Made by a program: the position numbers and the translations under genes
DNA from: Escherichia coli
Lineage (GTDB): Bacteria; Pseudomonadota; Gammaproteobacteria; Enterobacterales; Enterobacteriaceae
DNA length: 64,000 nt
Direction: 5' to 3' (one strand)
Assembly (NCBI RefSeq): GCF_009931435.1
Contig: NZ_CP043414.1
Shown here: positions 2,971 to 62,555 of the stretch, piece by piece
Numbering within the stretch: position 1 is the stretch's first letter
Layout: the number at the start of each line of letters is the position of its first letter
Notes under the pieces: model-generated
The model's database searches: none
What the model saw: only the letters and a program-made list of their open reading frames with translations
Told to the model about the DNA's origin: nothing

Positions 2971-3304
2971 CACGATGTCTGAATCCTTGCCAAAAGTACT
3001 GCTGGCACTATACCAGAGAATGAACATACTGGATTGCTCCAGTGTTGTGAATGAACCGTAACGCAATAAAACATATTTACTGCAATTCTTTGGCTGGTTC
3101 TTTTACGAACATCGGAAACCTGCCGCTTAAACGGTGAGTATTGGCGATAAAAATCCAATAAAACGTTCAAGGCAAAAGTAAGAAACAGACAAAGCAAAGG
3201 CCGCTCACGATATAGCCAGATAAATGACGGGGATCAATTGGCTTACCCGCGATAAAATGTTACCATTCTGTTGCTTTTATGTATAAGAACAGGTAAGCCC
3301 TACC

Positions 3305-4705
3305 ATGCCACATTCCTACGATTACGATGCCATAGTAATAGGTTCCGGCCCCGGCGGCGAAGGCGCTGCAATGGGCCTGGTTAAGCAAGGTGCGCGCGTC
3401 GCAGTTATCGAGCGTTATCAAAATGTTGGCGGCGGTTGCACCCACTGGGGCACCATCCCGTCGAAAGCTCTCCGTCACGCCGTCAGCCGCATTATAGAAT
3501 TTAATCAAAACCCACTTTACAGCGACCATTCCCGACTGCTCCGCTCTTCTTTTGCCGATATCCTTAACCATGCCGATAACGTGATTAATCAACAAACACG
3601 TATGCGTCAGGGATTTTACGAACGTAATCACTGTGAAATATTGCAGGGGAACGCTCGCTTTGTTGACGAGCATACGTTGGCGCTGGATTGCCCGGACGGC
3701 AGCGTCGAAACACTAACCGCTGAAAAATTTGTTATTGCCTGTGGTTCTCGCCCTTATCATCCAACAGATGTTGATTTCACCCATCCACGCATTTACGACA
3801 GCGACTCAATTCTTAGCATGCACCACGAACCGCGCCATGTACTTATCTATGGTGCTGGAGTGATCGGCTGTGAATATGCGTCGATCTTCCGCGGTATGGA
3901 TGTAAAAGTGGATCTGATCAACACCCGCGATCGTCTGCTGGCGTTTCTCGATCAGGAGATGTCAGATTCTCTCTCCTATCACTTCTGGAACAGTGGCGTA
4001 GTGATTCGTCACAACGAAGAGTACGAAAAGATCGAAGGCTGTGACGACGGTGTGATTATGCATCTGAAGTCGGGCAAAAAGCTGAAAGCCGACTGTCTTC
4101 TCTATGCCAACGGTCGTACCGGTAATACCGATTCGCTGGCGTTACAGAACATTGGGCTGGAAACTGACAGTCGTGGACAGCTGAAGGTCAACAGCATGTA
4201 TCAGACCGCACAGCCACACGTTTACGCGGTGGGCGACGTGATTGGTTATCCGAGCCTGGCGTCGGCGGCCTATGACCAGGGGCGCATTGCCGCGCAGGCG
4301 CTGGTGAAAGGCGAAGCCACCGCACATCTGATTGAAGATATCCCTACCGGTATTTACACCATCCCGGAAATCAGCTCTGTGGGCAAAACCGAACAGCAGC
4401 TGACCGCGATGAAAGTGCCATATGAAGTGGGCCGCGCCCAGTTCAAACATCTGGCACGCGCACAAATCGTCGGCATGAACGTGGGCACGCTGAAAATTTT
4501 GTTCCATCGGGAAACAAAAGAGATTCTGGGCATTCACTGCTTTGGCGAGCGCGCTGCCGAAATTATTCATATCGGTCAGGCGATTATGGAACAGAAAGGT
4601 GGCGGCAACACTATTGAGTACTTCGTCAACACCACCTTTAACTACCCGACGATGGCGGAAGCCTATCGGGTAGCCGCGTTAAACGGTTTAAACCGCCTGT
4701 TTTAA
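3305..4705 (+). CDS. sthA: Soluble pyridine nucleotide transhydrogenase
   Basis: 466-aa [28 protein letters not shown] with FAD/NAD-binding GxGxxG motifs; divergent from fabR. Confidence 0.95.
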
Positions 4706-5605
4706 CACTTTATCGAAATGGCCATCCATTCTTGCGCGGATGGCCTCTGCCAGCTGCTCATAGCGGCTGCGCAGCGGTGAGCCCGGACGATAAACCAGGC
4801 CAATAGTGCGGCGTGGTTCCGGCTTAATACACGGCAAATAAACAACCCCATCGCGTTTGCGCTCCGGCGGCACAGCCAGTGCAGGCAGTAAAGTGATCCC
4901 GCTACCTGCCGCCACCATGTTGCGCAGAGTTTCCAGGCTGGTCGCGCGGAAGTGTGTATCTTCATCCGCCCCGGCTTCAAAGCAGAAACCCATTGCCTGA
5001 TCGCGCAAACAGTGACCATCTTCCAGCATCAGCAGTTTTTCCCCTGCCAGATCGGCCATCGGTACGCATTCGCGGTTCGCCCACGGGTGATCTTCATAGA
5101 TAGCCAGCAACATTGGCTCATCAAACAACGGCACTTCAATGAATGCTTCGCTCTCTTTCACCAGCGCGAGGATCACGCAATCGAGTTTGCCGCTGTCCAG
5201 TTGCGCCAGTAACTGGTGGGTCTGTGCTTCATGCAGATACATTTCCAGCTTTGGAAAGGTCTGGTGCAGCATCGGGATAATATGCGGTAACAGGTAAGGC
5301 CCAACCGTTGGAATCAAACCAATATGCAGCGGTCCGGACATCGTCTCACCCTGCTGGCTTGCCATCTCTTTAAGGACTTTCACCTCACGCAGCACGGTAC
5401 GCGCCTGATCCACCAGCAGCATTCCCGCCTGGGTGAACAACACTTTACGGCTGGTCCGCTCCAGCAACATCACGCCCAGCTCATCTTCCAGCTTACGAAT
5501 TTGCCCGCTAAGCGTCGGCTGGCTAACGTGGCAGGAGTCTGCCGCACGCCGAAAATGGCGGTGTTCAGCCAATGCCACCAGGTACTCAAGATCACGAATA
5601 TTCAT
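4688..5605 (-). CDS. oxyR: LysR-family hydrogen peroxide-responsive regulator OxyR
   Basis: ORF 4688..5635; start placed at [44 protein letters not shown] (305 aa). Its 3' end overlaps the 3' end of sthA by about 18 nt, convergently. Confidence 0.95.
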
Positions 5606-7205: not shown

Positions 7206-8420
7206 TTACCAGTTCCACAATGTGCCATCTTCCAGTCGTGCGACGGGGAGATACGCCGGGTCATACGGATATTTCGCCGCCAGTTTCTCATCGAAAGAAA
7301 TACCCAGCCCCGGTTCATCGCCTGGGTGCATATAACCTTCATCGAAGCGCCAGCTGTGCGGGAAGACTTCAAGCATTTGTTCGGAATAGCCCATGTACTC
7401 CTGAACACCAAAGTTTGGCACCCAGAGGTCAAAATGCAGCGCCGCCGCATGACAAACAGGCGATAAATCTGAAGGGCCATGCGAACCGGTACGTACCTGA
7501 TAAAGCGATGCAAAATCGGCAATCCGTCGCATCCCGGTAATGCCGCCTGCATGGGTAATCGTCGTGCGAATATAGTCAATCAGCTGCTCTTCGATTAACT
7601 GCTTGCAGTCCCAGATACTGTTAAACACTTCACCGACCGCAATCGGCGTCACAGTATGCTGGCGAATCAGACGAAAACATTCCTGGTTCTCGGCAGGCGT
7701 CGGATCTTCCATCCACAACAGGCGGTAATCCTCAATGCTCTTCCCAAAGCGCGCCGCTTCGATAGGAGTCAGGCGATGGTGCATGTCATGCAACAGATGT
7801 TCGTTAAAACCGAACTTATTACGCACCGCTTCAAATAACTTCGGTGTAAAATCGAGATACTTTTCTGAAGACCACAACTGCTCTTCCGGCCACAGGCCTT
7901 TGGTTGCCGGTTCATACGCCAGTCCTTTGCCCTTCGCCAGGCCATAAGTGGTTTGCATACCCGGTACACCGCACTGCACACGAATCGCCTTAAAGCCCAT
8001 CTGCTGGTGCTTTGCATAGTCTTCAAGGACTTCATCAATCGTGCGCCCGGTGGTGTGGCAATAAACCATCACGCCTTCACGAGAAGCCCCACCAAGCAGT
8101 TGATACAATGGCATATTTGCCGCTTTGGCTTTGATATCCCACAACGCCATATCAATGGCAGAAATGGCCGACATCGTGACGGGGCCACGTCGCCAGTAAG
8201 CACCTTTATAAAAGAATTGCCAGATATCTTCGATACGGCTGGCATCGCGGCCAATTAATTGTGGACAAAGATGATCTTTCAGATAAGAAGCGACCGACAA
8301 TTCGCGACCATTTAATGTGGCATCTCCCAATCCACAAATTCCGCTTGCAGTGGTTATTTTAAGCGTAACGAAATTACGTCCTGGGCAAGTAACAAAAACA
8401 TCTGCAGCAATAATTTTCAT
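7206..8420 (-). CDS. Enolase-superfamily sugar-acid dehydratase, RspA/ManD (D-mannonate dehydratase)-like
   Basis: ORF 7206..8480; start placed at [47 protein letters not shown] (404 aa), closely resembling RspA/ManD N-termini. Likely co-transcribed with the MFS gene downstream. Confidence 0.85.
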
Positions 8421-8789
8421 TATTGCAATCTCCTGTGTTGTAAATAGACGCTTCAAACTTAATTTTACGCCTACTACCATACAAGAGAGAAAGGGCGATT
8501 ATTCAACCGTGATCACATTAAAAATAAAAATTTCCGCCGAGGAACAAAAATATCCTCAAATCTCACCTACACTATTAACTACCATCGTTAAAACAACGTG
8601 TTAAATAATCACATAACAAATTCCTTTAAGGAAAGGAGTTATAACAACAACAAAAGATAATCATATTTTACTTAATTCAATACGTATCGATAGGTTTATT
8701 TAAAAAGGATTTTTCGGAATGAGAGATGAAAAGAAGATACACAAGCAGGAAGAAATACGATTAATATTAGTTGCGGTAAGGGTAGCCGT

Positions 8790-8910
8790 TCCTCCCTTCC
8801 GCAACCCATTAACCGTTGAAGTCACAGACTATTTCAGGCATTTCTCAACTCAAAATAACGACAGCCAACGTGAACTTTATGGCTCTCCAGGATCTGCTTT
8901 GTTTTCCATC
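8790..8910 (+). repeat. Degenerate second copy of the oxyS 3' half (oxyS-like relic)
   Basis: 8813-8905 ccgttgaagtcacagactatttcaggcatttctcaactcaaaataacgacagccaacgtgaactttatggctctccaggatctgctttgttttcc aligns to oxyS 5725-5816 at roughly 75-80 percent identity by eye; the 5' part of oxyS is not recognisable. Confidence 0.7.
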
Positions 8911-10387
8911 AAACAACGGAGCTCAGCGCACTGGCTACCTGTTTAAAGCGAGCAAACCGTCGCCTGAGCATGTGTGCTTTTTCTACATTCGGTTCAAGAC
9001 GAATCACGTTGAGCTGCGTAGCCTTCATGGCCTGTTTGAATCCAGAATAAGCCCCTCCTCCTACTGCCGCACACATTGCAGCCGCTCTACAACCTGACTG
9101 TTCAATATCGACAATTTCAAGAGGCATTTTGCTGGCATCACAAAACATCTGCATCCAGATTCTGGAATGCGTTGGCCCGCCAGAGAAACGAATCGTTTGC
9201 AATGACTTATCAATCTCAATAAGACGGTCCTGATGCAACAAATGAGAAAAGACAACGCCCTGATAAATAGCGTACACCAAATCTTCTCTTTTATGATGCC
9301 CACACAGCCCCAAAAATCCCCCGCTTAATGCCTCATGGTAATTCGAGCCAAACAACCACGGGAAAAAGAGAATATCATTCTGTTTCTCATACCCTCGTTC
9401 CACCCACTCATTAATCACCCGATAACTGTCAGGAAGACCCGGTAAAAATTGCTGCAAGAACCATGTTAAATTACTGGCTGATGTAGGGCTTCCCTCATGG
9501 GCGAAAAATGTACCTGGAATGCTAAATTTCCCCCATACATAGGGATAATCAGAAGGAATAATGCGATCAAAGATTCGCGTTGCAATTGACCAGGTGCCAG
9601 CAACCGCACTTAACGTTGTACTGTCATAGATGCCAGAAGTGAGCGCCGCACCAACGACATCAAAAACACCACCAAAAACAGGCGTTCCGGCGAGAAGCCC
9701 ACATTGGCTGGCTGCTTCAGATGTCACAAACCCAGCTAAATCAGCGGAGCCAATAATATCGGGAACCTTACCCGCAACTTCCTTAATCTCAAATAGGCGA
9801 AAAAGTTCAGCATCATAAGCACTGGTATATTGATTATAAAAATTACTGCCTGAAATATTGGTTTCTTCACAAGCCAGTTTGCCAGTAAGCCGTGAACGTA
9901 TGTAATCATGAACCATCAAAATGGTTCCGATGCGGCCATAATTGTCAGTCTCATGTTTTTTCAACCAATGCAATAGTGCTACAGGGTGCGATGGCCAGAG
10001 CTGTTGCAGACTACGGTGATAACTTTCGCGGTCAATTCCTTGTTCTTTCCAGCTTGCAACCAGTTGTTGTGCGCGAGAATCAGAGGAAACAATGCCGTGT
10101 CGTAAGGGCTTACCTTGCCGGTCGAGCAGGTACAAACCTTTACCATGAGCAGAAAAACTGATGCCATCAATCTGACTCGCAGTAATATTGTTATCTGACA
10201 TCGACAGTGAAATGACCTGGCACGTTACCTTCCATAACGCCTCCATGTCGCGTTCGCAAAAACCAGGACATGGGCTTAACAGAGGTAACGCCTGCGAAGA
10301 GACACCTATTTCACGTCCTTCTGCCGTATAAATTCCCGCTTTGGTTTCTGTACCACCTAAATCGACACCAATAAAATACCGCTCCAT
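8909..10387 (-). CDS. FGGY-family carbohydrate kinase, L-xylulose/3-keto-L-gulonate kinase (LyxK)-like
   Basis: 492-aa ORF MERYFIGVDLGGTETKAGIYTAEGREIGV...; FGGY motifs and strong resemblance to LyxK throughout (DMAELW, HDYIR, EASPTSSGNL-like blocks). Confidence 0.85.
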   Translation of the reverse strand: MERYFIGVDLGGTETKAGIYTAEGREIGVSSQALPLLSPCPGFCERDMEALWKVTCQVISLSMSDNNITASQIDGISFSAHGKGLYLLDRQGKPLRHGIVSSDSRAQQLVASWKEQGIDRESYHRSLQQLWPSHPVALLHWLKKHETDNYGRIGTILMVHDYIRSRLTGKLACEETNISGSNFYNQYTSAYDAELFRLFEIKEVAGKVPDIIGSADLAGFVTSEAASQCGLLAGTPVFGGVFDVVGAALTSGIYDSTTLSAVAGTWSIATRIFDRIIPSDYPYVWGKFSIPGTFFAHEGSPTSASNLTWFLQQFLPGLPDSYRVINEWVERGYEKQNDILFFPWLFGSNYHEALSGGFLGLCGHHKREDLVYAIYQGVVFSHLLHQDRLIEIDKSLQTIRFSGGPTHSRIWMQMFCDASKMPLEIVDIEQSGCRAAAMCAAVGGGAYSGFKQAMKATQLNVIRLEPNVEKAHMLRRRFARFKQVASALSSVV

Positions 10388-10403
10388 GATCCCTCCTTAG
10401 TTT

Positions 10404-11267
10404 CTAAATATTATCCCAGCCGGCAAGGCGCATTTTCTCTTCAATCCATTGACGTGCATGAATAATTTCTAATAGAGGTTCCGTCGCTTTTTCTGTCCAC
10501 ATTTCTATCAGAAACGTTCCGCGATAATTAAGATTACGCAGGATCTTAAATAATTTAATAAAATCTACACACCCTTCACCAAAAGGAACGTCACGAAATT
10601 GCCCTGGAGAATCAGGCGTTACTGGGTACGTATCTTTAAGATGGATTGCGGCAATTCGATCAATCCCCTTTACCAGCTCACTTTCCAGTTCATTACCCCA
10701 TGCGGTCAGATTGCCAACATCCGGATAAACGGTAAACCAAGGGGAATTAATTTTTGTATCCAGGACTTTCCATTTACTAATAGAATTAATAAATGGCGTA
10801 TCCATGATCTCTACAGCACACATAACTTGTGCCGCTGCGGCCTGTTCAGCTGTCCAGGCCATCGCATCTTCAAACCAGGCGATAGTTTCTTCATTCTGCG
10901 GCTCATAATAAACGTCATAGCCTGCCAGTTGGATTGTTCGAATCCCCAAATCCTGCGCCAGGCGTAACGCCTTCAACATAATCGTACGTGCCTGCTGACG
11001 AGTATCTCTATCATGGCTACCAAATGGAAAACGCCGGTGAGCAGACAGGCACATTGTCGGAATACGGATCCCCGTTTGCTGAATGGCGCTAATAAGCTCC
11101 ATACGCTCGGTGAGCGACCAGTCCAGGCGGGCGAGTCGTTCATCATTCTCATCTACCGACATCTCAACAAAATCAAAACCGCAAGATTTAGCCAGGGCTA
11201 GTTTCTCTACCCAACTGGTATTCCTGGGTAGCGCTTTTTCATAAATACCTAACGGGTGGCGTCGCAT
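10404..11267 (-). CDS. L-ribulose-5-phosphate 3-epimerase (UlaE/SgbU family, xylose-isomerase-like TIM barrel)
   Basis: 287-aa ORF LGIYEKALP...GFDFVEMSVDENDERLARLDWS...MCLSAHRRFPFGS...IQLAGYDVYYE...YPDVGNLTAW...LIEMW, matching UlaE/SgbU nearly block for block. Confidence 0.85.
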   Translation of the reverse strand: MRRHPLGIYEKALPRNTSWVEKLALAKSCGFDFVEMSVDENDERLARLDWSLTERMELISAIQQTGIRIPTMCLSAHRRFPFGSHDRDTRQQARTIMLKALRLAQDLGIRTIQLAGYDVYYEPQNEETIAWFEDAMAWTAEQAAAAQVMCAVEIMDTPFINSISKWKVLDTKINSPWFTVYPDVGNLTAWGNELESELVKGIDRIAAIHLKDTYPVTPDSPGQFRDVPFGEGCVDFIKLFKILRNLNYRGTFLIEMWTEKATEPLLEIIHARQWIEEKMRLAGWDNI

Positions 11268-46744: not shown

Positions 46745-48298
46745 ATGATGAGAACTGTATTTACGACTTTATCAGTCATATTCAGCGTGATGTTTTCTCA
46801 CAGTATACTAGCTCAGGACGTTACTATTTATTATACGAATGATATTCACGCACATGTCAATCCGGCAAAAATTCCCGCTGTTGATAAGAACAGACTTGTA
46901 GGTGGTATGGCTAATATTGCAGGCATCGTTAATGAAGCGAAGAAAAAAAACAAAGATGTCTTTTTCTTTGATGCAGGCGACTATTTTACCGGTCCGTATA
47001 TCAGTACCCTGACCAAAGGTGAAGCTATTATTGATATCATGAACACCATGCCCTTTGATGCGGTGTCCGTTGGTAATCACGAGTTCGATCACGGCGTGCC
47101 CAATATGGTATCTCAGTTATCAAAAGCAAAATTCCCCATTCTGCTGGGAAATATTTACTACACCGATACAAATAGACCAGTTTGGGATCATCCGTGGACC
47201 ATTATCGAAAAAGATGGTTTAAAGATTGGTGTGATTGGATTGCATGGTGCATTCGCTTTCTATGATACAGTCGCGGCAAAAGCACGTGAAGGCGTAGAAG
47301 CCAGAGACGAAATTAAATATTTAAATAAAGCACTTGCAGAATTAAAAGGTAAAGTCGACATTACCGTTTTGCTAATTCACGAAGGTGTTCCGGCGCGTCA
47401 ATCAAGCTTTGGTAGTAAAGATGTGGAGCGGCTACTACAGGCAGATATTGAGACAGCTAAAAAAGTGAATGGTGTTGATGTCTTAATTACCGGTCACGCA
47501 CATGTCGGAACACCGCAACCAATAAAAGTTAATAACACATTAATTGTATCTACCGATGCATACGGCACCGACATCGGAAAACTTGTGCTTGATTACAATC
47601 CGAAAACAAAGAAAATTGATAGTTATAATGGTGAGTTAATCACCATCTTTGCAGATCAATTTAAACCTGACACCATCGTTCAAAATACTATCGATAAATG
47701 GAGCGTAAAGCTTAACAAAATCACACAGGAAGTTGTCGGCCATTCTCCCGTAGTTTTAACACGTGAGTATGGCAGTTCTTCTTCTACCGGTAACCTTATT
47801 CTGGATGCAATGATGGAAAAAGCACCTGATGCCATTGCCGGATTTCAAAATAGCGGTGGGATGCGAGCTGATTTTCCTAAAGGTGATATCACACTGGGAG
47901 ATGTTATTAGCACATTCCCCTTTAATAATGACCTCATCGAGATGGATTTGACGGGCCGCGATCTCAAATCATTGATGACGCATGCAACCAATCTAACTAA
48001 CGGTGTGTTACAGGTTTCAAAAAGCGTTGCGGTTGTCTATGACAGCAAAAAACCACTCAACCAGCGGTTAATCTCTTTCACCATTAACGGCAAACCCGTG
48101 GAAGATAATCAAACATATCGTATTGCCACGCACTCCTTTTGTGCCAGTGGTGGTGACGGTTTTGAAGCATTTTTGAATGGAAAAAATGTGAAGACGATAC
48201 CGGGAACAACCTCGGCGGAATCTATCATCGATTATTTCAAAAATCATAAACCTGTCACCCCAGACTTAACTAAACGAGTCATGGACGTCGCCAAATAA
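46745..48298 (+). CDS. Periplasmic bifunctional metallophosphatase / 5'-nucleotidase, UshA-like (paralog 2, most divergent)
   Basis: 517-aa ORF with signal peptide ending ILA-QD and the same NDIHAH / GNHEFDHG / GHAHVG motifs. Confidence 0.85.
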   Translation: MMRTVFTTLSVIFSVMFSHSILAQDVTIYYTNDIHAHVNPAKIPAVDKNRLVGGMANIAGIVNEAKKKNKDVFFFDAGDYFTGPYISTLTKGEAIIDIMNTMPFDAVSVGNHEFDHGVPNMVSQLSKAKFPILLGNIYYTDTNRPVWDHPWTIIEKDGLKIGVIGLHGAFAFYDTVAAKAREGVEARDEIKYLNKALAELKGKVDITVLLIHEGVPARQSSFGSKDVERLLQADIETAKKVNGVDVLITGHAHVGTPQPIKVNNTLIVSTDAYGTDIGKLVLDYNPKTKKIDSYNGELITIFADQFKPDTIVQNTIDKWSVKLNKITQEVVGHSPVVLTREYGSSSSTGNLILDAMMEKAPDAIAGFQNSGGMRADFPKGDITLGDVISTFPFNNDLIEMDLTGRDLKSLMTHATNLTNGVLQVSKSVAVVYDSKKPLNQRLISFTINGKPVEDNQTYRIATHSFCASGGDGFEAFLNGKNVKTIPGTTSAESIIDYFKNHKPVTPDLTKRVMDVAK

Positions 48299-48332
48299 AA
48301 TATCATTTATCAGTCTATTTATTTAACAAGGA

Positions 48333-49958
48333 ATGCGAATGAAAACAGTGCAGCGTACTTTACTTGCCGCAACATTGCTGACTATTTTTTCGGTTTCAGT
48401 CATGGCGCAGGATGTCACGATTATTTATACAAATGATCTTCACGCTCATGTGGATTCTTATAAAGTGCCGTATATCGCAGACGGAAAACGCGACATTGGC
48501 GGCTTTGCCAATATATCTACTTTAGTAAAACAAGAGAAAGCGAAAAATAAAGCCACCTTTTATTTTGATGCTGGAGACTATTTCACCGGCCCTTATATCA
48601 GCAGTCTGACAAAGGGCGAAGCAATAATTGACATTATGAATACCATGCCTTTTGACGCAGTATCAATCGGTAATCATGAGTTTGACCATGGCTGGGATAA
48701 TGCCCTGCGACAATTAAGCAAAGCGAATTTTCCTGTTTTATTGGGCAATGTTTATCATAAAGAGAGTGAGAAACCCTTCTGGAACAAGCCCTACACCATC
48801 CTGGAAAAAGATGGCATCAAGATTGGTATTATTGGGCTACACGGCGTATTTGCATTTAATGATACGGTCTCGGAGCTCTCTCTCCAGGGACTCGATAATG
48901 ACAATAATAACCGCTTTGATAAATCTTCCGAGACCCTTAAGAATCAGGGGATTGAAGCACGTGATGAAGTGAAGTATTTGCAACATTATATCGACGAGTT
49001 ACGTGATAAGGTTGACCTCACTGTGGCGCTGGTTCATGAAGGCGTTCCGGCGCGTCAGTCCAGCATTGGCAATACAGATGTTAGACGCGCTCTTGATAAA
49101 GATATTCAAACCGCTAGCAAGGTGAAAGGATTGGATATTCTGATTACCGGGCATGCCCACGTCGGAACGCCAGAACCAATCAAAGTCGGCAACACCTTAA
49201 TCCTTTCAACTGATAGTGGCGGTATCGATATTGGTAAATTAGTCCTTGATGTCAACCCTACAGCTCGTACCCATAAAATGAAGAGCTTTGAGCTGAAAAC
49301 AGTTTATGCCGATGAATGGATACCCGATCCAACGACACAAAAAGTTATCAATGGCTGGAATAAAAAACTGGCGGATATTGTACGCCAACCAGTGGGTGAA
49401 TCATCGATTGCATTAACTCGCGCCTATGGTGAGTCATCGCAACTAGGCAACCTGTTTACCGATGCAATGCTTGTCGCTGCTCCGACTGCACAGATTGCAT
49501 TGATAAACTCCGGCAGCTTACGTGCGGATATAAATGCAGGCACGATTACCTTTGGCGACATTACCAGTACATTCCCCTTCAAGAATGAACTTACTGAAAT
49601 GGATCTCAGCGGTAAGGATCTGCGTAACCTACTGGAACACGGGGCATCGCTTACCAATGGCATCCTGCAAATGTCAAAAGGCGCAGAAATGCGCTATACC
49701 CCGCAGAAACCAGTAGGTCAGCGCATAGTATCTTTTAAAATTAATAGTGAAGAGATCGTTGATACGAATATTTACCATGTTGCAACAACGACTTTCCTTG
49801 CACTGGGGGGCGATGGTTTTCTGGCATTCAAAGAAGGGAAAAATGTTCAGGTCCGCGCCGGAAATAACATGTCCGATGTCGTGATCGATTATTTGAAGAA
49901 AGGCCACAAGATTACGCCTGCACAGGTAAATGAAATGCGGGTGGACGTTAGCAAATAA
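48333..49958 (+). CDS. Periplasmic bifunctional metallophosphatase / 5'-nucleotidase, UshA-like (paralog 3)
   Basis: 541-aa ORF, about 70 percent identical by eye to paralog 1, with an extra roughly 25-aa insert (ELSLQGLDNDNNNRFDKSSETLKNQ). Confidence 0.85.
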   Translation: MRMKTVQRTLLAATLLTIFSVSVMAQDVTIIYTNDLHAHVDSYKVPYIADGKRDIGGFANISTLVKQEKAKNKATFYFDAGDYFTGPYISSLTKGEAIIDIMNTMPFDAVSIGNHEFDHGWDNALRQLSKANFPVLLGNVYHKESEKPFWNKPYTILEKDGIKIGIIGLHGVFAFNDTVSELSLQGLDNDNNNRFDKSSETLKNQGIEARDEVKYLQHYIDELRDKVDLTVALVHEGVPARQSSIGNTDVRRALDKDIQTASKVKGLDILITGHAHVGTPEPIKVGNTLILSTDSGGIDIGKLVLDVNPTARTHKMKSFELKTVYADEWIPDPTTQKVINGWNKKLADIVRQPVGESSIALTRAYGESSQLGNLFTDAMLVAAPTAQIALINSGSLRADINAGTITFGDITSTFPFKNELTEMDLSGKDLRNLLEHGASLTNGILQMSKGAEMRYTPQKPVGQRIVSFKINSEEIVDTNIYHVATTTFLALGGDGFLAFKEGKNVQVRAGNNMSDVVIDYLKKGHKITPAQVNEMRVDVSK

Positions 49959-50036
49959 TAAAAAAATTATAATGCCATTCATTCACTGAATGGCATTATT
50001 TTTCTCTAAATCAACAATAGATAATGAGATATATTT

Positions 50037-50897
50037 ATGTGTATAAAAAAGCACGGGATAGCTTTATCGATTCTATTAATACCTTGCATTGGAAACGCTC
50101 AGGAAATTAAAAGTGAGGAAGGCTGGTTACATCAAAGCTTGAATGTCATTGGTCGCACAGACTCTCGCTTTGGCCCAAGGCTGACTAACGACCTCTACCC
50201 TGAATATACTGTAGCAGGAAGAAAAGACTGGTTTGATTTTTATGGTTATGTTGATCTACCAAAATTCTTTGGCGTCGGCAGTCACTATGATGTTGGGATC
50301 TGGGATGAGGGCTCACCACTATTTACGGAAATAGAACCTCGGTTTTCCATTGACAAATTGACCGGATTAAATCTTGCGTTCGGCCCTTTTAAAGAATGGT
50401 TCATTGCAAACAACTATGTCTATGATATGGGTGACAACCAGTCATCCCGGCAAAGTACATGGTATATGGGGCTTGGTACAGATATCGACACGGGTCTACC
50501 AATTAAGCTTTCTGCCAATATATACGCCAAGTATCAGTGGCAAAACTATGGTGCCGCTAATGAAAATGAATGGGACGGATATCGATTCAAAATAAAATAT
50601 AGCATTCCTCTTACCCATTTATTCGGAGGGCGATTGGTATACAATAGTTTTACTAACTTTGATTTTGGCTCCGATCTTGCGGACAAATCACACAATAATA
50701 AACGAACCAGTAATGCTATTGCTTCAAGCCATATCCTTTCCCTGCTATATGAACACTGGAAATTTGCATTTACACTACGTTATTTTCACAACGGTGGACA
50801 ATGGAATGCTGGGGAGAAAGTTAACTTCGGAGATGGTCCATTTGAATTAAAAAACACAGGATGGGGAACCTATACTACTATTGGTTATCAATTTTAA
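50037..50897 (+). CDS. Tsx-family nucleoside-specific outer-membrane channel
   Basis: 286-aa ORF with signal peptide; [110 protein letters not shown]...GYQF follows Tsx nearly block for block. Confidence 0.88.
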
Positions 50898-55362: not shown

Positions 55363-55971
55363 ATGAAATACAGGCTACTGATCCTCAGCCTGCTGGTTTC
55401 TGTGCCTGCCCTTGCCTGGCAGCCGGAAACTGGCGACATCATCTTTCAGATCTCTCGCTCATCGCAAAGTAAAGCAATCCAACTGGCGACCCATTCCGAT
55501 TACAGCCACACCGGTATGCTGGTGATGCGTAACAAAAAGCCCTACGTTTTTGAAGCGGTCGGCCCGGTGAAATACACCCCGCTCAAGCAGTGGATCGCCC
55601 ATGGTGAAAAGGGCAAATACGTTGTTCGCCGCGTTGAAGGCGGACTGAGTGTTGAACAACAGCAAAAACTGGCGCAAACGGCAAAACGTTATCTCGGAAA
55701 ACCGTACGATTTCAGCTTCTCATGGAGCGACGATCGCCAGTACTGTTCGGAAGTGGTGTGGAAGGTTTACCAGAATGCGCTGGGGATGCGCGTGGGTGAA
55801 CAGCAAAAACTGAAAGAGTTCGATCTCAGCAACCCGCTGGTTCAGGCGAAGCTCAAAGAACGTTACGGGAAAAATATTCCGCTTGAGGAAACGGTGGTCT
55901 CGCCACAAGCCGTTTTCGATGCGCCACAACTCACCACAGTCGCCAAAGAATGGCCGCTGTTTTCGTGGTAA
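55363..55971 (+). CDS. yiiX: YiiX-family (permuted papain-like / DUF830) secreted protein
   Basis: 202-aa ORF MKYRLLILSLLVSVPALAWQPETGDIIFQ; position next to metJ matches yiiX. Confidence 0.88.
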   Translation: MKYRLLILSLLVSVPALAWQPETGDIIFQISRSSQSKAIQLATHSDYSHTGMLVMRNKKPYVFEAVGPVKYTPLKQWIAHGEKGKYVVRRVEGGLSVEQQQKLAQTAKRYLGKPYDFSFSWSDDRQYCSEVVWKVYQNALGMRVGEQQKLKEFDLSNPLVQAKLKERYGKNIPLEETVVSPQAVFDAPQLTTVAKEWPLFSW

Positions 55972-56063
55972 TGGATGATGAAAAAAATAATTCCCGCCGT
56001 AGTCTGTTTGTTGCTTTGTAGTTGCACGACCTTTCCGCAAGCTGTCGCTCCGGCAGGGAAAGA

Positions 56064-57202
56064 TTACGAAAGCCCGCTCCCCGCAAGGACTGACGCCAGA
56101 TACTTTCTGTCCATGGCTGCTTTTCGCATCTTACGTCTTAACCCTGCCTTGAATACCTTATCATTCGTTAAAATATTAATAGCGATGTGCCGTATCCCTG
56201 AAAATAATTCTGCGGCGTTTCCTCTTCGTATTTTGCAGTCGTCTTCATTCATTACCACGTCCAGACGCCAGTGCAGCTTATTCTCCACGTGCCAGTGATT
56301 TCGGATCGCTGTGGCGAACTTTTCTGCGGTTAAATCAGCAGAACTGATATAATATCTGACCGTCATTTCTGGCTCTTTCTTTTGTTCTGCTATTATTGAC
56401 CGAAAGGAGAATGCCACGCATAATTTCTTCAGTCCTTTCCATTCAAACGTGAAATCAATAAGTTCATCACGGACATCGCAAACAATATGAAGACGGATTT
56501 CTTCTCTGCCGTGACTCTTTTCACTCATTGCGTAACTGTCATGCTCTGGATTATTTAATTCTTTCAGCGGAAATTTTTCCTCGAAGGCTTTATTTAGCCG
56601 CCCCTGATTTCCTTTTACAGAGAATAAATAATCACCTCCCTGTTTTTGTATCTTCTCTGCAATATCTTTCTGGCAACCCATCGCATCAGTTGTGATAATT
56701 TTTCCTTTATATCCAGCATGTTAAGAAGTTCAGGGATAGCAGTAATCTCATTGGATTTCTCATCCGTCTTGATCTGTCCGATGACCAGACTGTGCATTGT
56801 TGAGAACGCACTAATGACATGAATCGCTCCCCTGCGGCGACTCTTGTCATAAGAATGCCGGAGTGTTTTTCCATCAATTGCGATGACGTCTTTATCATCT
56901 GAAGTATGGCAATCTCGCATCCAGTTAATAAAGCACTCGTGAAATTTTGAAGGACTGATACAGGATACAACTCTGGCGATGGTATCGTGAACAGGAATAC
57001 CATTTTCAAAATCACCATATTGTTTTAAAAAATCGCGATGTGCTTCCCCAAAATCCTCTATATGTTCCCAGCCTTCTGCACCAGAAATAACGGCACAAAT
57101 AGTCAACAGTAGAATATCCGACAATTTATGTTTCACTTTTGCAGGATTGTCTGCAATCGGGAATAACAGAAATATGTTCCATCAATTTTTTAAGTTCCAT
57201 TC
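56064..57202 (-). pseudogene. H-repeat-associated (ISAs1-family) transposase, disrupted by at least two frameshifts
   Basis: ORFs 56615..57136 and 56064..56681 together span an H-rpt transposase ([22 protein letters not shown]...DIKEK / [20 protein letters not shown]...[18 protein letters not shown]). The first codons ([11 protein letters not shown]) sit further upstream in another frame, reverse complement of 57170-57202. Confidence 0.8.
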
Positions 57203-57339
57203 TTTTCTCCTTAATTATGTAAGGAGTATTTGATCATGTATAAGCAATAAAAAAACAGCTTCAGGCAATGAGGAATATCTCAATTTTTAAACATAAAATG
57301 CGAATTGTTTAGTACAAAAAAGCAGCGTTAAGTGATCTT

Positions 57340-57585
57340 TCCCTGTCGGCATGTTGACCACTGACGAATGGGGTAGTTACGCTAGAGAGTTACCAAAGGA
57401 GAAGCATCTGACTGGTAAGATTTTTACTCAGCATATTGAGCGTAACAATCTGACCCTGAGAACCCGAATCAAACGTCTGGCCCGCAGAACCATCTGTTTC
57501 TCGCGTTCTGTAGAACTTCATGAAAAAGTCATCGGTGCTTTTATCGAAAATATATGTTCTACTAATTGGAGTCATCACCCTTCTG
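57340..57585 (+). mobile_element. IS1-family 3' remnant (InsB C-terminal fragment plus terminal inverted repeat)
   Basis: ORF 57351..57665 begins MLTTDEWGSYARELPKEKHLTGKIFTQHIERNNLTLRTRIKRLARRTICFSRSVELHEKVIG, matching the InsB C-terminus; aattggagtcatcaccc at about 57565-57580 resembles the IS1 terminal repeat. Confidence 0.7.
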
Positions 57586-57634
57586 ATGAGCTTTCCTTGG
57601 ATGATTACCAGACTGAATACATAGCCAAAGATTT

Positions 57635-57958
57635 TTACCTCATTCTGCTTTTTTTTCTCAAATGACATATATTATATTTTATATCATATTCATAGGCATA
57701 TGACATTCCCCCGCCCCCCATTATGTCATTGTGGGTTGATGTTGGGCTTTCATAAAAAAATACATCTTTTTTTGAACTAGCATTAATTATATTTACTTTA
57801 TATATTAAAATATTTTCTCCATCTGGAAATATTTTAGCCACACAATATAAAGCAGCTAAATCCGAATTACTTAAAAATATATTGTCATCACTCATAACTC
57901 CAGCCATTAAATGACTGGAGACTAAAGCAAGGAAATAACAACATTGTATTACCTTCAT
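57635..57958 (-). CDS. Candidate Rhs immunity protein (small AT-rich ORF overlapping the rhs stop)
   Basis: ORF 57635..57994; the MKVIQCCYFLALVSSHLMAG Met gives a 107-aa product starting 2 nt inside the rhs stop codon region. Assigned as immunity by position only. Confidence 0.6.
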   Translation of the reverse strand: MKVIQCCYFLALVSSHLMAGVMSDDNIFLSNSDLAALYCVAKIFPDGENILIYKVNIINASSKKDVFFYESPTSTHNDIMGGGGMSYAYEYDIKYNICHLRKKSRMR

Positions 57959-57959
57959 T

Positions 57960-60900
57960 TTAATTACTCCCTTGCCTGATAATTGTAACTCCATTCCCTT
58001 TAGCTTTGGGATTATATTTTAGATAGGTGTTATTTGGTGTTCCCAAGTAACTACTGTATTCTTTTTTTCCCATTCCATTCATATAAGAATTCGTTAAATC
58101 TTTGCTTGAAAAATTTAGACTATCATAAACATCATTTTCTTTTGTTACTTTATTTCCTTTATCGTCAGAGTAAAAACCGTGAGTGTGATAATCGCCTACT
58201 CTCTCTGAACCTTCAGGGCATTTTATATTTCGCAAGTCTACACTATCATTATCATTTGAACTTATCGGATTCATGGGGAAATATTCACCTTGCTTCTTAC
58301 ATATTAGTCCACCATATTCTTTATTCTCGTTAATTGATTCTCCATTACACATTGCCAATGCAAATATTCCAATATCATCTATATTTTTTGATTTAAATTC
58401 ATATAATCCTAATGGATCCATGCCATTCACCGGGCTCAGCGGATATGTATACAGGTTCCATCCCCCCTTCAGCCCAATCGGATCCTGAGTGATATACCGC
58501 CCCTGCAGCGGGTCATAATAGCGGTGGCGGTTGTAATACAGGCCGGACTCCTCATCATACTGCTGACCCGGCAGGCGGATGAGCTGCTGCAGCTGGTGCG
58601 GGTTCTCTTCATTCAGCAGGTTGCCCCATTCATCGTATTCTGCGCACCATTCTGTTGCCCCTTCCGTGCTGATAAGCACCAGCGGCAGGCCGCGATGGTC
58701 GCAGTGGTACAGGTGGATTTTTCGCGCCGGCGTGTACACCGGTTCCATCTGGTTTTGCATCTGCGCCACCGTCAGGCCGCACGATGCCAGCCAGCGGCGG
58801 CTTTCCTCACTCACCCGGTCAGCCAGGATTTCACTTTCCAGCCGGTCGAGCATCTGCACCAGCACCGGCGGGAACACCACACTGCCACCGTCTTCGCCGC
58901 CGGACTGCTGAAGCGCATCCGCCAGGCTGCGGCGCTGCGTTTTCGCCAGCTCACCGGTGGCGGTTTCGACCCTGATGAGTGGCGTGAAGCTCCCCGGCTG
59001 ATAAACCGTCTGGATGCGGGTTCTGTCGTTCTGTATCGTGGTCAGCCGGTCGCCGTCCCAGCCGTACCAGGTCACTTCCGGTTTCCGTGACAGCGACATC
59101 CAGCCCGTCAGGTCCCGTTCACGCCGCCACACCCGTTTTGCCACCCTGCGGCCCAGCGGGTCGTAAAGATAGCGACTTTCGACCAGCGGCTCTGCATATT
59201 GTGTCCGCGTGTAGTGCACCAGCCGGTGCCGGCTGTCGTAATGGTACCGGTGAGTCCGCTCATCATCCGTGCGGATAACCCCTTCCGGGATGAGGTCGGT
59301 TTTCTCTGTCAGCCTGCCGTGACGGTCATACCGGTAAAGATAGTGCGCGTCACGGGCGATACGGTTATCCGGCCACATGCTGAGGGTGCTGTCCGGGTGC
59401 AGCTCCGGGTCGGGCAGGCGGTTACCTGCCGGGTCCGTGGCATACGGGATGCGGATATCCAGATTCGCTGCGGTGGTGTGAACGCCGGTCAGCCTGCCGG
59501 TGGTGCTGTAGCTGTAACTCCGGGTCTGGCGCGGGCTGCTGATGCGAATGAGTTCGCCGTTGTCGTTCCAGGTGTAATCGCGGTCATACTGCAGGCTGTT
59601 CAGGTGCTGGCTCTGTAACTGCCCGGCAGGGGTGTAAGCGGTGGTGAGTTCATAACGGCCGAAGCTGCGCAGCGTTTCCCGGTGCAGGCGGTCGCGGGTG
59701 AAATCCACCAGCGGTGTGTCGCCGAGTTTCATCCCTGCCAGGTAACCACTGCCATAAGTCAGCCATTCCACGGCGGGCAGGCTGTCCGGTATACAGCGGT
59801 TCGCCAGCCCCTGCGCGTTGTACGCATGTCTGGTTTCATGCTGCCAGAGCAGTGCTTCCGTCTGCGGGTGATGCACCGTCTGGCGCTCACCGGTCAGGCG
59901 GCCTTTCTCATCATACCCGTAATGCACCGTCACCCGGTGCCCTTCGCTGAGATGGCTGATGCCTGTCAGCCAGCCGCGTTCGTCGTACCGCCACTGTTCT
60001 GCGGTTTCACCATTCACCGTTCGCTGCGTGATGCGGTCTGCTTCGTCATAGTGCCAGTGGGTGACCAGTCCCTCATCCTCGCTGCGGATAAGTTTGCCGG
60101 TCAGGTCGTGGTGATAACGCTGTGTGCGGCCGTCAAAGCCGGTTTCCTGTATCAGCCGGTCGAGTACATCGTAACGGAAGGTGGTGTGGCTGCCGTTTTC
60201 GTTTGTCAGGCGGATGACCCGTCCTGCAGCATCGTATTCCATACTGCGGGTCAGCCCGCCCTGCGTGGTACGGACGGCCTTTCCCCACGCATCGTACTGT
60301 GCCCCGTATCTGCTGCCGTCCGGGGCAATGACGGTGGTCAGGTCACCGGCGGCGTTGTATTCATACCGCGTTTCATGGCCCTGCGTGTCTTTCACCGCAA
60401 TTAACTGTCCATGGCTGTCGTATGCGCGGCACTGGCTCAGGCCTTCCTCGCGGTGCACCGCCGTCATCTGCCCGAAGCGGTCATGGTCATAACGGGTCTG
60501 GTAGCCGGAACAGTCGGTGAAGGTCAGCAACTGACCGTAACGGCTCCACGTCATGGTTTTCCGGCTGCCGGTGGCATCTTCCGTTGCGCAGGGGAAGTCA
60601 CTGTGTGGATTATCATAACGGTAGCGGATGATATCGCCGTCAGGGGCAGTTTCCTGAATCAGACGGCCGGATTCATCATATTCCCGGCGTATTTCCAGCC
60701 CGTCAGGCCCGGTGGCTGACGTTAACTGGTTGTGGTGGTTATAGTAAAACGCCGATGCCCTGCCATCCGGCGTGGTGATGCGCGTGATGAGTCCCGTCAC
60801 CACATCCGGGCTGTATTCTGTTGTCCGGCCTGCGGCATCCGTCTGTGTCCTGAGCCTGCCCACCGCGTCAAACTGACTCTGCGTGACGCTGCCGTCCGCG

Positions 60901-62303: not shown

Positions 62304-62555
<252 letters not shown>

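Follow-up and report, generated by a model that had tools for sequence, protein, structure and literature searches.

A structurally complete H-repeat and an IS1H remnant at the yiiX end of an RhsF-type island in Escherichia coli

The H-repeats of Rhs elements, remnants of IS1, and the Rhs locus between yiiX and rpmE have all been described before, and sequences of this kind are routine IS debris. H-repeats belong with ISEc1, whose copies in K-12 are yhhI, ydcC, and ybfD, and reports of introns within H-repeats date back to the 1990s. Deletions that start at the terminus of an insertion sequence and extend into the adjacent DNA have been described for IS1, IS10, and IS903. ISEc1 and IS1 are not known to mobilize Rhs islands. 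The rhs locus that concerns us here is known as 'position 11', located between yiiX and priA, and the clade I rhs loci of E. coli are generally devoid of dissociated tips (Jackson et al. 2009, PMC2935791). As stated in a passage of PMC3032704 that cites earlier work, transposition of an H-repeat has not been observed experimentally. The EHEC 'RhsF/RhsFI' (PMC7618764) was considered as a further relative but rejected, because it belongs to another locus (ECs0604, S-loop 44) and has only the name in common.

We analysed a 64-kb stretch of E. coli DNA (the window) and compared it with a set of 5,426 complete E. coli genomes. Based on Pfam and NCBIfam matches, the gene order of the window is metL, metB, metJ, yiiX, the IS region, dsORF-f3, rhs, and rpmE (Table 1), that is, the same site and the same rhs/dsORF-f3 pair as in the described RhsF-type element at yiiX-rpmE/priA. 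The DNA between yiiX and dsORF-f3 could be assigned completely (55973-57634): it consists of the remnant of a TIGR02117-family gene plus 5 bp (together 81 bp), an H-repeat of 1292 bp, an IS1 stub of 234 bp, and a spacer of 55 bp. The 5 bp are island sequence upstream of the ATG of the TIGR02117 remnant. No further rhs, H-repeat or IS1 fragment was found within the 64-kb window. A first-pass annotation of this DNA had placed decayed mobile elements on either flank of the immunity gene, but the H-repeat and the IS1 stub both lie on the downstream side of dsORF-f3.

Table 1. Features between yiiX and rpmE, in coordinates of the window
Feature	Coordinates	Strand	Remarks
yiiX	55363-55971	+	Left neighbour of the IS region
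Remnant of a TIGR02117-family gene	55978..56053	+	Aligns with the 624-bp gene of E. coli HS up to ...GCTCCGG
Full-length ISEc1-type H-repeat (ISAs1 family), 1292 bp	56054..57345	-	Both inverted repeats present; no target-site duplication
Transposase pseudogene, 378 codons once repaired	56064..57200	-	Pfam, NF033564, alignment to intact copies
Frameshift 1 (+1)	57137..57141	-	Sense CCTGCAAAAG vs CCTGGAAAG in intact copies; codon 20
Frameshift 2 (-1)	56710..56711	-	Sense GGATATAAAGG vs GGATATTAAAGG in intact copies; codon 164
IS1H remnant, positions 531-764 of 764 bp	57346..57579	+	3' part of insB and right inverted repeat
IS1 right inverted repeat	57557-57579		Faces dsORF-f3
Spacer, 55 bp	57580..57634	.	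IS1 right end to the dsORF-f3 stop codon; junction conserved
dsORF-f3, presumed immunity gene of the RhsF-type toxin	57635..57958	-	Co-linear with annotated loci
Intact Rhs protein, 1394 aa	57960..62144	-	NF041261, Pfam
rpmE	62304-62516	-	Right neighbour of rhs

The H-repeat extends beyond its transposase gene (56054-57345 vs 56064-57200) and ends in the inverted sequences CAGGGAAAGATTAC and CAGGGAAAGATCAC, which match at 13 of 14 positions and share the form CAGGGAAAGAT[T/C]AC. It is co-linear from end to end with the ISEc1 copies of the comparison loci L002-L005, L010, and L011 (94-96% identity). For the copies at the yiiX locus of WL297 and 2013C-4282 the identity is 98.3%, and this alignment ends at base 1282, where an intron is inserted. 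Overall, the window copy resembles annotated ISEc1 copies in DNA sequence (94-99% identity), in length (1292 vs 1291 bp), in its terminal inverted repeats, and in its 378-codon transposase gene, the repaired translation of which scored 414.9 bits against the ISAs1 family model NF033564 (cut-off 70). Like the classical H-repeats, it is located at the distal end of an Rhs element. It differs from them in that two indels that compensate each other disrupt its transposase gene, in that it abuts a truncated IS1H, a junction occurring in only three of the 5,426 complete genomes, and in that no target duplication is present, since its flanks, GCTCCGG and TCGGCATGTT, are different. The window H-repeat is thus a member of ISAs1/ISEc1 by descent, structurally complete, and carries a pseudogenised transposase.

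The IS1 piece (57346-57579) matches, with 99.6% identity, positions 531-764 of the 764-bp IS1H (L002 7100-7863) that most island-bearing strains have at this site and that RefSeq lists as 'IS1-like element IS1H family transposase'; the pieces equivalent to ours in L001, L003, and L006 are annotated there as incomplete IS1 family transposases. Pfam DDE_Tnp_IS1 matched it with an E-value of 6.7e-32 and 111 bits (cut-off 24.1) over model positions 61-127 of 131. The NCBIfam model NF033558 gave only 57.5 bits, below its cut-off of 100, because the match is confined to the C-terminal part. A complete IS1 measures about 764-768 bp and has two 23-bp inverted repeats; here insA, the frameshift window, most of insB, and the left repeat are missing, so that one end only is left. 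Therefore, this stub is a remnant rather than an element and is unable to move. The first-pass annotation had recognized it as the last roughly 240 bp of an IS1-family element whose terminal repeat points at the immunity gene. The family and the orientation hold, the right inverted repeat ending 55 bp from dsORF-f3, and the length is corrected to 234 bp. Its further statement that both elements are remnants applies to the IS1 stub alone: the H-repeat is complete with both ends, and only its transposase gene is broken. We also asked if H-repeats are generally accompanied by an IS1 stub and rejected this idea, as the RhsE/ydcC locus of K-12 and several others have no such stub.

The comparison of genomes allowed us to arrange the forms of this site in a stepwise history. 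In E. coli HS, the site has its original form without Rhs, with an intact 624-bp TIGR02117 gene (L013 9013-9636) between yiiX and rpmE. This gene is also intact in RM9513 and is absent from K-12, where only 60 bp separate yiiX from rpmE. The common form of the island (L002; O157:H7, L014; L015) shows the order yiiX, codons 1-27 of the TIGR02117 gene, a full IS1H, dsORF-f3, rhs, and rpmE; here the Rhs island together with IS1H has replaced the TIGR02117 gene from codon 28 on, i.e., its 3' 550 bp. The full IS1H lacks a target-site duplication (L002 7086-7100 and 7863-7875; flanks CGGTAAAC and CTTCTGATG), which indicates that an old IS1-associated rearrangement accompanied or followed the arrival of the Rhs element. 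The junction between the IS1 right inverted repeat and dsORF-f3 (query 57500-57650, coverage at least 80%) was found at the same chromosomal site in 2,168 of the 5,426 genomes (~40%). In the window, the TIGR02117 remnant comprises the first 25 codons and one additional nucleotide, a short ORF after yiiX with a lipoprotein-like signal sequence, and the H-repeat replaces exactly the TAAAC of the TIGR02117 pseudogene and IS1H bases 1-530. Compared to the resident IS1H of this island end, with which it shares the right junction to dsORF-f3, the window thus keeps only the last 234 of 764 bp.

The junction between the H-repeat and IS1 position 531 is shared by the window and three other genomes (2020CK-00188, 2013C-4282, and WL297). 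It is uninterrupted only in 2020CK-00188; in the other two a group II intron is located 10 bp inside the H-repeat end, the intron being whole in 2013C-4282 and reduced to a 595-bp remnant in WL297. All three encode an intact transposase of 378 aa. Many other strains have a different arrangement: in about 930 genomes an H-repeat occurs in one place with the IS1 piece and the yiiX flank, and in L002, the one of these that we inspected, ISEc1 lies inside rhsF (8244-10947), again without a target duplication, most of the core being lost so that rhsF retains only 393 bp at its 5' end and 1035 bp at its 3' end. Taken together, we consider it quite probable that the yiiX end of the window had the following history: an Rhs island with IS1H at its end was present, ISEc1 then replaced IS1H bases 1-530, and two indels arose in the transposase gene.

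To characterize the transposase gene, the window H-repeat was aligned to the intact copy at the same locus (WL297, 2013C-4282) and to five other copies. Exactly two indels were found relative to intact copies, a +1 in CCTG[C]AAAA (57137-57141) and a -1, the loss of a T from codon ATT-164, at ~56710. Hence, the gene consists of codons 1 to ~20 in frame 0, starting with the ATG at 57200, codons ~21 to 164 in frame +1 (57136-56615, with a GTG start), and codons 165 to 378 in frame 0 (56681-56064). Frame 0 stops at codon 25. Because the +1 and the -1 cancel each other, the first and third pieces are in one frame (57200-56681 = 519 = 3 x 173). It had been claimed that this gene is full length in extent but split over at least three reading frames. 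Pfam, NF033564, and the alignment all support a full extent and an interrupted gene, but the three pieces occupy two frames. The alignment to intact ISEc1/H-rpt and IS1 copies, proposed at that time as a check, placed both indels and set the truncation point of IS1 at position 531. The middle ORF (56615-57136) contains the whole N-terminal domain, DDE_Tnp_1_assoc (3.8e-28), and the DDE_Tnp_1 domain is divided between this ORF (model positions 3-74) and the last one (87-200), so that no single product contains the whole catalytic domain. After repair of the indels, ~8 of the 378 residues differ from those of the intact WP_106907682.1.

It could be asked whether errors of sequencing or assembly account for one or both frameshifts, so that the transposase would in reality be intact, as in each of the three genomes that share this locus structure. 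We regard this as unlikely, and the two indels have to be viewed separately. The -1 is the better candidate for an error, since no complete genome among the 5,426 carries it, and the 81 bases around it (56670-56750) reach at most 97.6% identity there. But it lies in a TT dinucleotide and not in a long homopolymer. Moreover, the 12.8 kb common to the window and 2013C-4282 contain only two gaps, both in the H-repeat, and the other ~11.5 kb are free of indels; indel errors are therefore not a general feature of the window assembly. The -1 would accordingly represent a private mutation or, less probably, a sequencing error.

The +1 lies in a patch of 73 bp (57095-57167) that contains seven linked substitutions. 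The same +1 with its linked SNPs is present in the yafV-locus H-repeat of 2013C-4282 and WL297 (L007), in the ydcC copy of N96, and in numerous ybfD pseudogenes, and RefSeq calls the copies with this allele frameshifted or pseudogenes wherever they are present. Its recurrence at paralogous copies in independent assemblies shows that it is a real and old defective allele. In addition, the window H-repeat is closer to its yafV-locus paralogue (98.9%) than to the orthologous copy at the yiiX locus (98.3%), which is a signature of gene conversion between copies. The patch with its linked SNPs thus points to gene conversion from defective H-repeat copies at other loci. In the history that we favour, the +1 would have been brought in as a short conversion patch from such a paralogue elsewhere in the genome, and the -1 would be a later mutation private to the window.

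How the H-repeat reached its present position can be approached through its termini. In 2020CK-00188 (L003) the right junction is the same as in the window, but on its left side the H-repeat adjoins codon 34 of yiiX, 590 bp further left. Two deletion end points, at window 56053 and at the equivalent of window 55463 (L003), thus extend from the exact same ISEc1 terminus, which is the pattern of a transposase-mediated adjacent deletion. The likeness to the adjacent deletions of IS1, IS10, and IS903 lies in this one terminus shared by two end points; the difference is that for ISEc1 the process is deduced here from comparative sequence data alone. According to this scheme, ISEc1 would have transposed into or next to IS1H, and a deletion anchored exactly at one ISEc1 terminus would then have removed the left part of IS1H. 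Two intermediates can be envisaged, an ISEc1 within a complete IS1H, with the left part of IS1H joined to the ISEc1 left end with a duplication of TCGGCATGTT, and an ISEc1 directly to the left of a complete IS1H, with the right end of ISEc1 abutting the TIGR02117 remnant plus this IS1H. Both are absent from the 5,426 complete genomes.

Elsewhere, ISEc1 copies with target duplications do occur. A perfect 10-bp duplication, CCAGGCTTGT, surrounds an H-repeat that is inserted in another H-repeat near galF of ATCC 8739 (L005 1674-4239), and a 9-bp duplication, TCGCTGTTC, flanks an ISEc1 inside an rhs gene of strain A31 (L017). These duplications of 9-10 bp provide modest comparative evidence that H-repeats transpose. 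As a side observation, the CCAGGCTTGT target is equivalent to window 57142-57151, directly beside the position of the +1 frameshift, and in many genomes the BLAST alignments extend 9-12 bases beyond the H-repeat ends, into flanks resembling TCGGCATGTT. The CCAGGCTTGT target and these similar flanks hint at a weak target preference of the H-repeat.

Alternatively, the H-repeat could have been imported by homologous recombination from an Rhs locus that already had an H-repeat beside an IS1 stub, without any transposition at this site. A similar arrangement does exist: SCU-301 (yafV locus, L004) and CFSAN061769 (a tandem Rhs/T6SS cluster, L010) have, downstream of dsORF-e4, an H-repeat next to a shorter and more diverged IS1 stub, and H-repeat copies clearly exchange sequence. 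But the stub of these two strains differs in length, covering positions 632-762, as well as in its junction, and shows only 93.9% identity. The IS1 piece of the window, in contrast, is 99.6% identical to the IS1H resident at this very island end, and its right junction with dsORF-f3 is the ancestral one. Recombination of this kind therefore appears improbable as the source of the window arrangement, and we prefer transposition followed by an adjacent deletion.

These results also bear on the general view of H-repeats, which are usually seen as inert relics of Rhs elements. Somewhat tentatively, we suggest that ISEc1/H-repeats may instead be active or recently active insertion sequences, which generate 9-10-bp duplications, cause terminus-anchored deletions that trim the ends of Rhs islands (IS1H here, yiiX in the sister strain), and spread defective alleles among their copies by gene conversion. 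Because the window H-repeat keeps both ends, it would, if this suggestion is correct, be movable by the transposase of another copy. With its own transposase gene broken, it could be mobile only if another copy supplied the protein in trans.

The Rhs protein next to these IS sequences matched NF041261 (RHS_core) with 2620 bits, as well as the Pfam families RHS_repeat, DUF6531, and DUF4329. Its gene consists of a GC-rich core (62%) and an AT-rich tip (31%) with the DUF4329 domain and, like those of O157:H7 and 2013C-4282, is intact and encodes 1394 aa. The gene co-linear with dsORF-f3 is annotated as 'RHS element protein dsORF-f3' in L001, L002, and L006; dsORF-f3 had no Pfam or NCBIfam match of its own. 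It has a hydrophobic, signal-like N-terminus, and a longer ORF variant (57635-57994) overlaps the rhs stop codon. The dsORF-f3 copy of O157:H7 (L014 7136-7458) is annotated as frameshifted, although the rhs gene there is intact. In the window, the toxin/immunity pair is untouched by the IS decay. Compared with the RhsF-type elements in other strains, the distinguishing feature of the window is the truncation of its distal IS1H by the H-repeat.

In the first-pass annotation, the two IS sequences had been interpreted as signs of an old, now immobile Rhs island that may have lost displaced orphan tip/immunity pairs. The island is indeed old, as judged from the presence of the Rhs island with the IS1 junction in 2,168 of 5,426 genomes. 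However, the decay is recent and lineage-specific, because the junction occurs in three genomes, the transposase is intact in all three of them, and one frameshift is unique to the window. Immobility does not follow either, since the locus is still changing in sister strains, with intron insertion (L006, L001) as well as tip displacement and a yiiX deletion (L003). The loss of orphan modules could be sought at two places. The arrival of the Rhs element left room for it, because IS1H lacks a target duplication, it and the Rhs element replaced 550 bp of the TIGR02117 gene, and an old IS1-associated deletion could have occurred on the dsORF-f3 side. But none of the inspected genomes with the common form (L002, O157:H7 L014, L015) has orphans between dsORF-f3 and IS1H, and the clade I loci lack dissociated tips in general (PMC2935791). 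The H-repeat event, on the other hand, removed only IS1H bases 1-530 and the 5 bp TAAAC, hence no Rhs sequence, and the ancestral form was already without orphans. Likewise, no orphan array, that is, an rhs core fragment with an alternative tip/immunity pair downstream of the main pair, was found in the 64-kb window, the rhs gene of which is intact. An ancient inert island in which IS debris marks lost orphan modules is therefore quite improbable, and the stepwise replacement of IS1H by ISEc1 remains our preferred history.

One sister strain deserves separate mention. In 2020CK-00188 (L003 7901-15957), the RhsF tip and dsORF-f3 are present as a displaced orphan behind a full rhsC-type gene and ybfB, and yiiX is cut to 102 bp by the H-repeat. 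In this strain, C-terminal tip displacement can thus be seen in progress at a clade I locus.

The H-repeat and the IS1 stub have no evident present function. That the split transposase works after all, through programmed frameshifting on the ribosome or in the form of a truncated regulator, is highly improbable: the middle ORF with its whole DDE_Tnp_1_assoc domain could in principle yield a DNA-binding fragment, but intact family members use one uninterrupted frame, frameshifting was rejected because it would have to be first +1 and then -1 at non-slippery sites, and RefSeq annotates the +1 allele as a pseudogene at each occurrence.

The practical outcome of our analysis is a better annotation, in which the H-repeat is a complete copy of ISEc1 whose transposase gene is a pseudogene, the 234-bp piece an IS1H remnant, and the 76 bp adjoining yiiX the remnant of a TIGR02117 gene. 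Beyond this, it provides a base-exact, stepwise history of one end of an Rhs island from genome comparison, and modest comparative evidence that H-repeats transpose, cause adjacent deletions, and exchange sequence among their copies. Its importance beyond correct annotation is otherwise small.

Two further observations were made in the course of the comparison. The intron mentioned above, which encodes an ltrA reverse transcriptase/maturase, is found at the same point of the H-repeat at the yiiX and yafV loci of 2013C-4282 (L006 6118-8000; L007 ~7282-9400) and in ydcC of N96 (L008 ~3247-5400), and its remnant in WL297 lies at L001 8377-8971. The occurrence of introns at one point in three H-repeat copies looks like site-specific homing into the H-repeat end. 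The window has no intron at the corresponding site, 57335/57336, which lies 10 bp inside the right inverted repeat. Finally, beyond metL (46745-50897), the window carries two paralogous metallophosphatase/5'-nucleotidase genes and a gene for a Tsx-like channel. This accessory insert is common to WL297 and 2020CK-00188, and in K-type strains metF is located close by at this position.
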